This document shows, piece after piece, positions 2,568-5,223 of a stretch of DNA of 34,746 nt. Under the pieces are notes generated by a model. The model saw only the letters and a list, made by a program, of their open reading frames with translations, made no database searches and had not been told where the DNA came from. Made by a program: the position numbers and the translations under genes. Within the stretch, counting starts at the first letter, position 1. The number at the start of each line of letters is the position of its first letter. Origin of the DNA: a virus; the UHGV virus genome UHGV-0079566, one strand, 5' to 3'.

Positions 2568-2723
2568 GTGTCATCCAAGGCTAATTATGAATCGCTGGCA
2601 TCGGTCATGCCGCGTAATGAACAGGAAGCAGATGCTGTAGTGGACCCGGTAATCGCTGAAATGAATGCTCGCCTGGAGGCTGAATTTGCAGCTGAGAATG
2701 AACATACCAACCAGGGCGACTAG
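2568..2723 (+). CDS. Small hypothetical acidic protein (about 52 aa from GTG)
   Basis: In frame with ORF 2526-2723; GGGAG Shine-Dalgarno 6 nt upstream of GTG 2568; start uncertain. Confidence 0.3.
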   Translation: MSSKANYESLASVMPRNEQEADAVVDPVIAEMNARLEAEFAAENEHTNQGD

Positions 2724-3327
2724 GACTGTTTTTTGTGTCGGTAGCGGTCCGTCACTCACTCGTGAGGACTGTGCTGCTATAGAAAAAACTGGCTGTTCAA
2801 TCATCGCGGTTAACAATTCCTGGCAGATGTTCGATGACATTTATGCCTTATACGCCGGTGATTTGTCATGGTGGAAGCAATACGGATCCACCATACCGGG
2901 AGGGAGATTCCGCAAAGTGACAGCCAACCTGGCGGCGGCGAAATCATTTTCGTTGGAGTACAGGCGATATTGTGGACCGGCGGAAGGGGTAAATAGCGGC
3001 GCGCAGGCTATCAGTCTGGCTGCTGAATCAGGGGCTGAAGTAGTGGTATTAGTCGGCTATGACTGTTCTCTGCAAAACGGCCTTCATTGGCATGGCGCGC
3101 ACCCTCAAGCCCTACGGAATCCAACGCAGGTGTCTATTTCAAAATGGCAACAGCAGTTCCTGGATACCCGCAAAAAACACGCAGATTTACATATTTTGAA
3201 TGCAAGTAGGAGCAGTGCAATTCAATGTTTCCCAAGAATAAATTTAGAGGCAGTGATCGCGTTATTATCGTCGGCAGTGGCCCAAGCGCCGCAAACTTTG
3301 TTGCGCCGCGTGGAGTGCCGATTATAG
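2698..3327 (+). CDS. Rossmann-like protein with a G-S-G-P-S glycine loop (paralog 1); tentatively DUF115/Maf-like (MptE-like) fold
   Basis: ORF track frame 2665-3327; motifs VFCVGSGPSL, IIAVN, GVNSGAQAISLA, VVVLVGYDCS; start could be ATG 2665 or ATG 2698. Confidence 0.55.
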   Translation: MNIPTRATRTVFCVGSGPSLTREDCAAIEKTGCSIIAVNNSWQMFDDIYALYAGDLSWWKQYGSTIPGGRFRKVTANLAAAKSFSLEYRRYCGPAEGVNSGAQAISLAAESGAEVVVLVGYDCSLQNGLHWHGAHPQALRNPTQVSISKWQQQFLDTRKKHADLHILNASRSSAIQCFPRINLEAVIALLSSAVAQAPQTLLRRVECRL

Positions 3328-3851
3328 CGGTCAATGGGGCCATCGACTGGCTGAACCGCGCTTCTTATTTTTTCACACTTGATCCATCGCCAGACAATAT
3401 GCGGCGCGTTGGTCGTGGCCGCCGTCGCCGTGGTGTTTGTTATTGCATGGCACTACCCGATGTTAAAGAACGTGAAGTCAGAGACGGCGTTCTGTGCTTC
3501 CGTCGTGTGGCTGAACGTGGCATGGAGCCAAAAAATACGAATTCTCCCGAGTGGTGGGCGTGGCGCTGGTCCGCACATTTCGGACTTTGCGAAGATGAGA
3601 ATGAAATTGCCAGCGGCAATAGTGCATATGGCGCTCTGAACCTGGCTTTCCATATCGGATTCAAACATGTCGCCCTGGTGGGCGTTGACGCTACACAAGA
3701 ACCACGCGTTCACTCCGGCGGCACGCCAAAAAATCTAAGTCACCTGCCTTTGTTATTCCAGTCTGCGCGTGAACAGATTGACGTTGTTTCATGCGGGAAA
3801 ATGGGAGGTATTCCGCAGATGACTCTTAAAGAATGGCTGAAGAATACATGA
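3225..3851 (+). CDS. Rossmann-like G-S-G-P-S protein (paralog 2), 208 aa; same tentative DUF115/Maf-like family
   Basis: ORF track; motifs [40 protein letters not shown] in the same order as paralog 1; overlaps the 3' end of paralog 1 by about 100 nt in another frame. Confidence 0.6.
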
Positions 3852-4525
3852 TGGCACCCACAATTTATCACCGTATCGACGGTACCAAATACAGGAATGT
3901 CTGGGTTGTTGGTGATCTGCATGGTTGCTACACCAGACTGATGTCCGAACTCCATCGTGTGGATTTTGACCCGGCGCAGGATTTACTGATATCGGTCGGC
4001 GACCTTATCGATCGCGGTACTGAAAATGTCGAATGTCTGGAACTATTGCAGATGCCCTGGTTCAGGGCAGTGATGGGGAACCATGAGCGGCTGATGATTG
4101 ATGCGTTAAGTCCAGATGGCAACGTGAATAACTGGCTAATGAATGGCGGACAATGGTTCTTCATGCTGGACACTGATCAGGAAATATTAGCCTGGGCGCT
4201 GGTGGAGCTGGTAAAGCGTCTGCCCTATATCATTGAGTTGAACACCGGGCAAGAAACTATCGTTATAGCCCATGCCGACTATCCGGATAATGAATACCAA
4301 TTCGGTAAGGAGGTGCCGCTTTTCAACGTTGTCTGGGCGCGCGAGCGTATCAGTGATTCGATGGATGATATTGGTGGCGAAATTTCGGGCGCAGATCGTT
4401 TTATCTTTGGTCACACTCCGGTGAAAAGCCCGAAGACATTCTGGAATCAGCAGTATATCGACACTGGTGCCGTATTTTGCGGAAACCTGACATTGATGAA
4501 AGTGAAAGGTGATGGTGCAGCATGA
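3833..4525 (+). CDS. Ser/Thr protein phosphatase, calcineurin-like metallophosphoesterase (lambda-phosphatase type), 230 aa
   Basis: Canonical motifs GDLHG, GDLIDRG, GNHE in order; start may be ATG 3833, 3848 or 3851; 3848 overlaps the upstream stop as ATGA. Confidence 0.75.
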
Positions 4526-5223
4526 AGATTGCTTTAGTTTTTCGCTCTGGTGGTGACTATAACGCTTCCGATGTGCAGTGGCTGGTTAATCAACTGCCAA
4601 AAGGCTATGAAATTATTTGCCTGACAGACCTGAAGCGTTTACATGTACCTGGCGTCAAAATTGTCCCATTGATCAACCAGTGGCAAAAGTGCCGTGGCTG
4701 GTGGGCGAAAATCGAGTTGTTCCGACCGGATATAACCGATGATCTGTTCTATCTGGATTTGGACACGGTTATTGCCGGTGATATACGCCCAATCCTAGAG
4801 CATCCACCAACCAGCTTCACCATGCTTAGGGATTTTTACCATCCACAATATCGTGGCAGCGGTGCCCTGTGGATACCAAATAGTGTTAAAGCGCATATCT
4901 GGAGTTCATTCTGGCAAGATCCGGAAGGTTGGATTTCTCGTTGTGTCACTACTGAGTGTTGGGGTGACCAGGGGTTCTTACGAAAGGTTATGGGCGATGA
5001 TACACCAGCATTTCAGGATCTGTATCCAGGATGGTTTGTAAGTTACAAGGCCGATGTTGTGGAACCTGGTTCAAAATATGCGAGCGCGCGTTACTCCAGG
5101 GGGAATGGGGCATTACCAAAAGACTGCCGAATAATCTTTTTCCACGGCAAACCGCGACCTCGCGAAGTGTCAGAGGATTGGCTTCCCCTTATCAGCTCAT
5201 TTTTTGAGCGAGAATCAGAATAA
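4522..5223 (+). CDS. Hypothetical protein (233 aa); possible nucleotide-sugar (GT-A-like) transferase with a D-L-D motif ([11 protein letters not shown]) - tentative
   Basis: ORF track; ATGA start/stop overlap with the upstream gene; followed by a strong hairpin terminator. Confidence 0.55.

Follow-up and report, generated by a model that had tools for sequence, protein, structure and literature searches.

Results

The stretch at positions 2,568 to 5,223 of the window (the whole 34,746 nucleotides of the virus genome UHGV-0079566) is, as judged from its sequence, the pmgN-pmgO-pmgP-ppp-pmgQ locus of a P1-like phage, the small upstream open reading frame included, and what is new here is that its functional unit consists of three genes, pmgO, pmgP and pmgQ (O-P-Q), not four. 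This O-P-Q module is kept across unrelated phages, with its domains sometimes fused in one polypeptide, and is often joined by sugar-type O-methyltransferases, with ppp being a passenger that was inserted separately and is not a member of the module. Our tentative reading, to which we give somewhat less than an even chance, is that the O-P-Q enzymes build a glycan on a protein made by the phage, be it a virion protein or another one.

Identity and layout of the locus

Positions 2665-5223 correspond to pmgO-pmgP-ppp-pmgQ with an identity of 98.9% to P1 and 99.5% to SJ46, and the source genome is a P1-like mosaic, with SJ46 and vB_EcoM-813R1 being its nearest relatives. It is the same locus as in P1 (AF234172) and P7 (AF503408), with a nucleotide identity of 98.7-98.9%, sharing gene order, overlaps and C1 operators and having no substantive difference. 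The genes are as follows.

2568..2723, plus strand: pmgN, small open reading frame of 51 aa overlapping the start of pmgO (P1 annotation)
2665..3327, plus strand: pmgO, putative glycosyltransferase with the MptE/Maf/GT42 fold; annotated start 2665, likely start 2698
3225..3851, plus strand: pmgP, distant pmgO paralog
3833..4525, plus strand: ppp, predicted lambda-type PPP-family Ser/Thr phosphatase; alternative ATGA-coupled start 3848
4522..5223, plus strand: pmgQ, predicted divergent GT8-like GT-A glycosyltransferase with DLD and FHGxPRP motifs

An earlier note on this DNA regarded the arrangement as one not described. It is in fact already known: annotated in GenBank/RefSeq as pmgO-pmgP-ppp-pmgQ of P1 and as hdmB-hdmC-ppp-hdmD of P7 (GenBank AF503408), the block has long been catalogued in these records, without a functional explanation. 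The published names 'putative morphogenetic function' and 'head morphogenesis' rest on map position and not on a demonstrated function, the RefSeq labels on the genes read alpha-2,3-sialyltransferase, glycosyltransferase and metallophosphoesterase, and our literature search on pmgO/pmgP/pmgQ, phage DUF115 proteins and P1 glycosyltransferases found no functional study.

All the four open reading frames that had been described exist when the sequence is translated. For pmgO, the start at 2698 agrees better with the N-termini of the homologs than the annotated one at 2665. The overlapping start and stop codons that had been noticed hold for pmgP/ppp (ATGA at 3848-3851, via an internal ATG) and for ppp/pmgQ (ATGA at 4522-4525), whereas the pmgO/pmgP overlap is of another kind, the first 103 nt of pmgP overlapping pmgO out of frame. 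PmgN has no match in Pfam, and no tRNA genes were found in the window.

Regulation

The placing of the cassette in an early region has to be given up, because the block lies between the baseplate/tail genes, where gene 26 is at 1151-1528, and pmgR/pmgS, preceded by a C1 operator and, further upstream, by a late promoter according to the P1 annotation. This annotation was transferred at an offset of 76927, which was checked on the open reading frames of gene 26, pmgL and pmgM, and together with operator matching and folding it gives the following elements.

1568..1586, plus strand: late promoter LPpmgL (78495-78513 in the P1 record AF234172), upstream of pmgL-pmgM
2469..2495, plus strand: predicted sigma-70 promoter PpmgN (P1 annotation 79396-79422)
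2508..2524, minus strand: C1 repressor operator Oppp (Op83) (P1 annotation 79435-79451)
5225-5241, plus strand: C1 operator OpmgRa at the operon end (operator match, P1 annotation)
5250-5277: 11-bp hairpin and then a T run at the operon end, flanked by OpmgRa/OpmgRb (folding)
5274-5290, minus strand: C1 operator OpmgRb at the operon end (operator match, P1 annotation)

From the annotation transferred from P1, it is predicted that Oppp keeps the operon off in the lysogen, and read-through from LPpmgL into the cassette could occur. It is noted that Oppp differs at 4 positions from the consensus of the operator scan and was hence missed by the scan, and that a consensus promoter/terminator scan detected neither the annotated promoters, PpmgN included, nor the hairpin after pmgQ, which folds with −13.4 kcal/mol (z −5.1).

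PmgO and PmgP

PmgO and PmgP are diverged paralogs with an MptE/Maf/GT42 nucleotide-binding fold. The proposal of two adjacent paralogs with common ordered motifs is borne out by the translations, where PmgO has VFCVGSGPS, IIAVN and GVNSGAQAISLAAESGAEVVVLVGYD, and by the matching of the family profiles. A pairwise BLASTP comparison is marginal (E 0.003, over the N-terminal 36 residues), and the profile-profile comparison of the two families with hhalign gives a probability of 98.1% (E 6.3e-14, 163 columns). PmgO (209 aa) belongs to PHROG 4603 (E 4e-74) and PmgP (208 aa) to PHROG 2111 (E 1.6e-132), each being a single domain, and the invariant residues of the PmgO family are SGPS, N39, D55, S100-G101, GYDCS and HWH.

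The earlier guess of a DUF115/Maf (MptE-like) fold also finds support, since the three-dimensional MptE-like/DUF115 fold is predicted to be common to both proteins (the AF2 model of PmgO having a pLDDT of 88), though both remain below the Pfam cut-off for MptE-like (PF01973), with 23.5 bits for PmgO and 20.9 bits for PmgP versus 34.6. Many PmgO/PmgP homologs carry a precomputed PF01973 match, and an O::P fusion (P0051) scores 44.6 bits against the same cut-off of 34.6. A single-sequence PmgO search of the PDB sequences was uninformative, the family profile being needed.

Within this fold, two known families can be compared with the pair. The Maf flagellin glycosyltransferases (DUF115/MptE-like, e.g. 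5MU5) are 632 aa long, with additional domains at both the N- and the C-terminus, and have a flagellar context, whereas PmgO and PmgP are single domains of about 200 aa, have a sequence identity of 16% to 5MU5 and have phage genes and no flagellin as neighbours; thus neither the multi-domain architecture of about 600 aa nor the flagellar context of Maf is found for them. The Campylobacter sialyltransferases Cst-I/Cst-II (GT42) show no significant sequence similarity to the family (E 0.2; 0.2-0.7 for the profile against CstII), with only the GxGPS and SG...GxD segments aligning and no residue assignable to the position of His188 of CstII. A literal sialyltransferase role of pmgO is rejected for want of a donor: the annotated neighbours showed no genes for the synthesis of sialic acid, and E. 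coli K-12 is not known to make CMP-sialic acid (CMP-Neu5Ac), so that the database label of sialyltransferase is very unlikely to describe the real reaction. It might alternatively be supposed that PmgO and PmgP are MptE/TPK-type pyrophosphokinases or other nucleotide-dependent group transferases, which, with PmgQ and perhaps also Ppp, would synthesise or break down a small molecule in, for example, an anti-defence or metabolic role, and this we consider quite improbable.

PmgQ

PmgQ, which carries a DxD motif, is best called a divergent GT8-like enzyme of the GT-A fold, a sister family to GT8 as predicted from its profile and model, because it does not reach the PF01501 threshold. The earlier description of a transferase-like protein with a DLD motif is thereby made more precise: the family profile finds Gat1 in the PDB with E 7.8e-7, and a Foldseek search of the PDB with the AF2 model (pLDDT 94.6) finds Gat1, glycogenin, GlyE and LgtC at 1e-8 to 1e-7 (best 1.4e-8), with the top 50 matches being nearly all GT8 or GT8-like enzymes (E 1e-8 to 1e-6). 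PmgQ carries YLDLDTV, and D79-L80-D81 as well as H208, G209, P211 and P213 are invariant in 31 homologs, aligning in the profile to the matching segments of Gat1 and glycogenin. Thus PmgQ shares with GT8 (Gat1, glycogenin, GlyE, LgtC) the GT-A fold and the DxD motif, and its C-terminal H-G-x-P-(R/K)-P aligns with the GT8 region ending in KPW. As for PmgO, a single-sequence search of the PDB sequences was uninformative and the family profile was needed. PmgQ has no match in Pfam, Glyco_transf_8 (PF01501) at its gathering threshold included, and PF01501 matches, all of them weak, are seen in only 6 of the 31 family members (best E 0.026). The family is separate, comprising 5350 clusters at 50% identity and having no Pfam model of its own. 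Over the module as a whole, the nearest solved relatives are mostly protein glycosyltransferases (Maf, Gat1, glycogenin, GlyE, UGGT, xyloside xylosyltransferase), with LgtC and WbbM being the exceptions.

Ppp

By its sequence, Ppp is a lambda-type metallophosphatase, as had been claimed: it has the three metal-binding motifs GDLHG, GDLIDRG and GNHE (MGNHE in the translation), which align with 1G5B, it matches this lambda phosphatase structure over residues 11-229 with E 1.5e-94, and it scores 59.3 bits against Pfam Metallophos, above the cut-off of 21.5. The alignment to lambda protein phosphatase (NinI / ORF221) runs end to end with all the metallophosphatase motifs, and the P1 record gives 64% identity. 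The lambda gene lies in the nin region, whereas ppp sits between pmgP and pmgQ and overlaps each of them by an ATGA.

The O-P-Q module in other phages

In a lambdoid prophage of Citrobacter rodentium O-P-Q is contiguous, between the lysis genes and terminase, without ppp; and a P1-like contig at 51% identity (L055) also has O-P-Q without ppp. An MptE-like gene lies within 5 kb of a PmgQ homolog in at least 44 of 108 non-P1 loci, and head/neck genes lie within 7 kb in at least 29 of the 108; these co-occurrence counts are lower bounds, the HMMs being made from P1-like families and the neighbour clusters from stop-to-stop open reading frames. In many siphovirus-like prophages the module is between the major capsid and the head-tail adaptor genes, often with an FkbM methyltransferase, the usual order being TerL-portal-protease-major head protein-(small ORF)-PmgO-(FkbM methyltransferase)-PmgQ and then adaptor Ad1-Hc1-Neck1-tail terminator-major tail protein. 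In some phages the module, or PmgQ alone, is near tail-fibre or tail-fibre-assembly genes. The scan of IMG/VR covered the best 80 of 552 matches, mostly P1-like.

Fusions join the same domains. P0051 is a PmgO::PmgP fusion, and open reading frames in two further loci (L073, L075) are PmgQ::MptE-like fusions. Among the best 150 representatives of the PmgQ family, 19 exceed 300 aa; an MptE-like domain is present in at least 10 of these and a clear or apparent methyltransferase domain in 6, 3 of them above Pfam thresholds, RMNT_CmcI included, with a TylF match being below the Pfam threshold. In line with such fusions, the best matches in BFVD are proteins of 441-700 aa labelled MptE-like or GT8.

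By contrast with O, P and Q, none of the non-P1-type phages examined has ppp in its module, and ppp stands alone, without O-P-Q, in phage D6. On these co-occurrence data Ppp as an integral member of the module is rejected, and the cassette is not a four-gene functional unit. A view built on the earlier note would have the four enzymes, phosphatase included, share one substrate and modify phage DNA or targets in the host, to counter restriction or other defences. The genes are indeed translationally coupled in P1 and are kept together across P1-like elements, the Pantoea plasmid L087 included, and DNA-hypermodifying phage glycosyltransferases are known (bioRxiv 10.1101/2023.12.21.572611). We regard that view as very improbable, since, besides the independent distribution of ppp, no O-P-Q protein is in a family tied to hydroxymethyl-pyrimidine DNA chemistry, no replication or nucleotide-metabolism gene is among the annotated conserved neighbour clusters, and digestion of P1 DNA with ordinary restriction enzymes is routine. 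The anti-restriction idea fails for type I systems, because P1 single deletions of these genes show the wild-type restriction phenotype, with normal plating on hosts that carry EcoA, EcoB or EcoK (PMC9024508). The earlier note had also stated that its proposal would fall if the cassette were dispensable with no detectable modification phenotype; the former part has been found, with all four genes dispensable for plaque formation in P1 under CRISPRi (PMC10695390) and single in-frame deletions having no plaque phenotype (PMC9024508).

Discussion

We now consider what the module would do. In the reading that we tentatively prefer, the operon would be expressed during lytic growth, because the C1 repression is lifted and a late promoter is upstream. 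PmgO and PmgP, probably as a hetero-oligomer, to which the P0051 fusion points, would then build together with PmgQ a short glycan from host nucleotide sugars. The donor for the Maf/GT42-like PmgO/PmgP pair might be a CMP-ulosonic acid, of which CMP-Kdo is the only one that E. coli K-12 is known to make, and the donor for PmgQ might be a UDP-hexose, with the transfer occurring with retention. The acceptor would be a phage-made protein, most likely a virion component, and the role would be an accessory one, such as protecting the particle, making it more stable or altering its surface properties, so that the glycan would be unneeded for assembly or for plaques on K-12. Ppp would be a phosphatase that was acquired on its own, joined the operon by translational coupling and has a target of its own. 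The support for glycosylation of a phage-made protein comes from the identity of the locus, the folds and motifs, the module, the fusions, the head-gene context, the protein-glycosyltransferase relatives, the C1 regulation and the independence of ppp.

A precedent is the glycosylation of mycobacteriophage capsids and tail tubes, as summarised in PMC12619734. According to what papers citing Freeman et al. 2023 relate of it (PMC12619734, PMC11256854), phage-encoded glycosyltransferases act there on capsid and tail-tube subunits, and the system is accessory, non-essential and near structural genes, as are the PmgO/PmgQ homologs. The hosts of these phages are Actinobacteria. The linkage of glycosyltransferase genes, with or without a methyltransferase, to structural genes is found here too, the relatives having MCP-PmgO-(FkbM methyltransferase)-PmgQ-adaptor.

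Some observations speak against the virion reading. The deletions and CRISPRi gave no plaque phenotype, and in P1 itself the module is in the tail/morphogenesis block, away from the capsid gene. The moron-type positions in some phages also fit a host-directed function, and PmgO/PmgP and PmgQ are under the MptE-like and Glyco_transf_8 Pfam thresholds, respectively. Note also that no glycan has been reported on P1 virions, for which the LC-MS/MS proteome was not aimed at glycans and mentions none (PMC9024508).

By contrast, the target of the module could be a glycoconjugate of the host envelope, such as the LPS core, ECA or some other surface glycan, its modification blocking superinfection or preventing the loss of progeny on debris. 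P1 adsorbs to the LPS core, GT8 includes LPS/LOS glycosyltransferases, with LgtC and WbbM being among the structural matches of PmgQ, the positions in some phages are those of cargo (near tail-fibre genes or, as in the prophage of C. rodentium, flanked by the lysis genes and terminase), and the PHROG class of PmgQ is 'moron, auxiliary metabolic gene and host takeover'. We nevertheless deem this unlikely, because known seroconversion genes are expressed in the lysogen, unlike this C1-repressed operon, the module sits inside the late head-neck operon in siphovirus-like prophages, the conserved neighbours showed no partner associated with the membrane, for instance a flippase, and one lytic cycle would leave little time for remodelling exported LPS. 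Lysogenic seroconversion in particular is rejected on the C1 repression and the late-operon contexts in relatives; the C1 repression in the lysogen together with the morphogenetic gene block argues against lysogenic conversion.

P1 serves as a standard tool of E. coli genetics and as a chassis for phage therapy and delivery, with about 1/3 of its genes, these included, having no known role. If the virions carry nothing, the genes would be a dispensable accessory cassette of modest interest. If O-P-Q glycosylates virions, several 'pmg' genes would be explained, virion glycosylation would be widespread beyond Actinobacteria, and there would be consequences for how P1-derived particles are engineered and for their immunogenicity and stability. 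A wider statement, possible although we hold it to be rather doubtful, is that P1 and a broad, unnoticed set of phages of Gram-negative and other hosts glycosylate their own virion proteins via a dedicated pair of enzymes, namely an MptE/Maf-fold transferase, which might use CMP-Kdo or some other ulosonic acid as donor, and a divergent hexosyltransferase of the GT8-like type, to which O-methylation would often be added. If this is true, virion glycosylation would extend from mycobacteriophages to a classic coliphage, and the phage glycosyltransferases would gain a new family comprising more than 5000 sequence clusters.

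Identity and organization of the locus

The feature described in the earlier note is real and was read correctly, and it is practically certain that the locus is the P1-type pmgN-pmgO-pmgP-ppp-pmgQ block. With megablast, window positions 2600-5300 give full-length matches to phage genomes, with identities of 99.5% to Salmonella phage SJ46, 98.9% to P1 (AF234172, 79527-82227) and 98.7% to P7, where the GenBank names pmgN, pmgO, pmgP, ppp and pmgQ of P1 become hdmA, hdmB, hdmC, ppp and hdmD. The arrangement, previously considered undescribed, is a known, annotated and non-essential block of phage P1. 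The regulatory features below were transferred from the P1 annotation with an offset of 76927 that is constant across the block, the last two being found also by an independent pattern search.

1568-1586, late promoter LPpmgL, upstream of pmgL
2469-2495, predicted sigma-70 promoter PpmgN, in front of pmgN
2508-2524, C1 repressor operator Oppp/Op83, in front of pmgN
2665-3327, (+), pmgO
3225-3851, (+), pmgP
3833-4525, (+), ppp
4522-5223, (+), pmgQ
5225-5241, C1 operator OpmgRa, directly after pmgQ
5274-5290, C1 operator OpmgRb, directly after pmgQ

Between OpmgRa and OpmgRb, folding gives an 11-bp hairpin (5250-5277, -13.4 kcal/mol, z -5.1) followed by a T run, which may be the terminator of the pmgN-pmgQ operon inside the pmgR control region. 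It is noted that the 3' arm of the hairpin shares four bases with OpmgRb. Because its neighbours are the baseplate/tail genes 26, 25, 7 and 24 at one end and pmgR/pmgS at the other, the block is located in the morphogenetic region rather than in the early region that had been supposed.

The four open reading frames and all the motifs quoted for them are present in the window translation, and the pmgO start at 2698, chosen from the sequence, is favoured over the annotated 2665 by the N-termini of homologs. The overlapping start and stop codons are also there, as ATGA at 3848-3851 (pmgP/ppp) and 4522-4525 (ppp/pmgQ). Moreover, pmgO shares 103 nt (3225-3327) with pmgP, read in different frames, and a corresponding overlap of 94 nt is present in a Citrobacter rodentium lambdoid prophage that is not related to the window phage (L004, 8510-8603); this overlap looks like a conserved trait of the pair. 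Note also that the gene callers have shortened PmgP in that prophage, with loss of the GSGPS motif from the annotation.

Enzyme families

In pairwise BLASTP, PmgO and PmgP align only over the N-terminal 36 residues (E 0.003), and in profile-profile comparison their families (34 and 36 homologs) match with a probability of 98.1% and E 6.3e-14 over 163 columns, so that the claimed paralogy is real but old. The Pfam MptE-like family matches both proteins below threshold, and the PHROGs family of PmgO is labelled alpha-2,3-sialyltransferase. Ppp, which is above the Pfam Metallophos threshold, aligns end to end with lambda protein phosphatase 1G5B (E 1.5e-94), as expected of the PPP-type phosphatase that it was taken to be.

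PmgQ has no match in Pfam. The best match of its profile (31 homologs) is the GT8 enzyme Gat1 (6MW5, E 7.8e-7), followed by GlyE and glycogenin, and its AlphaFold model (pLDDT 94.6) matches Gat1, glycogenin, GlyE, LgtC, WbbM, UGGT and xyloside xylosyltransferase with E 1e-8 to 1e-6. D79-L80-D81 and H208-G209-x-P211-x-P213 are invariant in the alignment of the 31 homologs, and the PHROGs family is labelled glycosyltransferase. Since an exhaustive HMM search gives 5350 clusters at 50% identity (3765 at E 1e-10 or better), PmgQ is a member of a large family that has no Pfam model. The fold assignments of the earlier note are right, and they agree with labels already on the RefSeq records.

The three-gene module

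In the C. rodentium prophage, the interval from the lysis genes to the small terminase has PmgO-, PmgP- and PmgQ-like genes side by side and no phosphatase, and a 96-kb P1-like contig with a PmgQ identity of only 51% (L055) also has the three genes (O-P-Q) and lacks ppp. Conversely, ppp of phage D6 (89.7% nucleotide identity) stands in a group of nin-type genes, and O, P and Q are absent there. Among 108 non-P1-type loci drawn from IMG/VR and GTDB genomes, at least 44 show an MptE-like gene no more than 5 kb away from the PmgQ homolog, and the only copies of ppp are those of a P1-like Pantoea plasmid and of one Salmonella prophage, in the latter on the opposite strand. O-P-Q is a three-gene module and ppp is a passenger independent of it, so the proposed four-gene functional unit is not supported.

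The fusions are also real. P0051 is a single 376-aa protein with a PmgO-like and a PmgP-like half, and ORFs of L073 and L075 join PmgQ to an MptE-like domain. Of the 150 best PmgQ-family representatives, 19 exceed 300 aa; at least 10 of these carry an MptE-like domain, and a methyltransferase domain is present or apparent in six, three being above Pfam thresholds (RMNT_CmcI, a rhamnosyl O-methyltransferase family, among them; TylF matches below threshold). In others there is a further GT domain, either again of the PmgQ type or of another kind. Among BFVD structures, PmgQ is likewise matched best by viral proteins of 441-700 aa annotated as MptE-like or GT8. Mainly because the fusions tie MptE-fold proteins to a glycosyltransferase and to sugar-type methyltransferases, we read PmgO and PmgP as transferases and not as pterin/thiamine-type kinases, and a kinase-type small-molecule pathway is improbable. 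That O-P-Q is a glycan-building three-enzyme module is, by contrast, quite probable.

The four genes are dispensable in the laboratory. With in-frame single deletions of pmgN, pmgO, pmgP, pmgQ and ppp, the virions are infectious, plaquing is not impaired and the restriction phenotype on EcoA, EcoB and EcoK hosts is that of the wild type, and PmgO, PmgP, Ppp and PmgQ are all absent from the virion proteome (PMC9024508). The type I restriction data, together with the co-occurrence analysis, weaken the idea that the four genes act in DNA modification or anti-restriction, which we consider very improbable. In a dCas12a CRISPRi screen, pmgO, pmgP, ppp and pmgQ were scored non-essential; pmgN (2568-2723) was scored essential, yet its in-frame deletion is viable (PMC10695390). 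Because all the downstream genes are non-essential, simple polarity does not account for this mismatch. In the literature, we found no paper assigning a function to pmgO, pmgP, ppp or pmgQ.

Genomic context in relatives

Neighbours were clustered de novo and then annotated with PHROG and Pfam. In relatives the context is that of a structural operon, with the recurrent order large terminase, portal, head maturation protease, major head protein, small ORF, PmgO-like, optional FkbM-family methyltransferase (PF05050), PmgQ-like, head-tail adaptor Ad1, head closure Hc1, Neck1, tail terminator and major tail protein. Of the 108 loci, at least 29 have head or neck genes at a distance of up to 7 kb, and at least 28 have one of two methyltransferase clusters. 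In a few contigs PmgQ alone is near tail-fibre and tail-fibre-assembly genes. The hosts are Gamma- and Alphaproteobacteria, with MAGs of Zixibacteria, Planctomycetes, Verrucomicrobia and Saccharibacteria.

The small ORF between the major capsid and PmgO-like genes (clusters c12/c31, about 90-110 aa) is conserved in loci L057-L095; the one copy read, that of L058, has a C-terminal tail rich in Ser/Thr/Pro/Ala. The product might serve as a decoration protein or accept the glycan. On a Serratia plymuthica chromosome (L003, 2500-15800), PmgP- and PmgQ-like genes adjoin phage lysozyme and holin, and two genes of the PmgO type border a group made up of two Big_1 (bacterial Ig-like) proteins, a protein with a lipoxygenase domain and two unknown ones; this unusual, only partly phage context might point to other acceptor proteins. 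A different family architecture is seen in alphaproteobacterial MAGs (L140, L142-L144, L146, L148, L151), where as many as three PmgQ-like stop-to-stop ORFs overlap, which probably represent two or three neighbouring genes, and the conserved clusters c25, c26 and c27 come after them, with no PHROG match for c25 and c26.

Other observations in the window

The putative morphogenetic gene pmgM (1923-2501) has a weak VRR-NUC nuclease match just below the Pfam threshold (E 1.8e-4). Because pap (6861-7367) matches the HAD phosphatase domain of polynucleotide kinase (PF25109) and a 292-aa protein (8144-9022) matches the PAPS-reductase family, 6861-9022 holds another phosphatase besides Ppp, together with an enzyme of the PP-loop type; the 192-aa ORF at 7562-8140 has no Pfam match. 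The window is mosaic, P1 covering only 54% of 5300-30000 and SJ46 and vB_EcoM-813R1 73-75%. At 27-28 kb the GC content is down to 0.355, and beyond about 27 kb the GC skew has the opposite sign, a pattern suggestive of a cargo island or of a switch in strand.

Proposed role

The module would make a glycan out of host nucleotide sugars, for which the Maf/GT42-like pair might, judging only from what is generally known of E. coli metabolism, use CMP-Kdo as donor. Because its expression would be confined to the lytic cycle and head-neck genes so often surround it, the module may act on a protein made by the phage, in all likelihood one of the virion. We propose this target tentatively; remodelling of host envelope glycans is an unlikely alternative to it. 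A precedent is the reported glycosylation of capsid and tail tube in mycobacteriophages (PMC12619734).

With the phosphatase taken out of the module, the comparative analysis turns the earlier idea into a testable hypothesis. What is new is the reading as a system, in which O-P-Q would be a phage module for glycosylation, its enzymes being of families that have yet to be characterised in phages.
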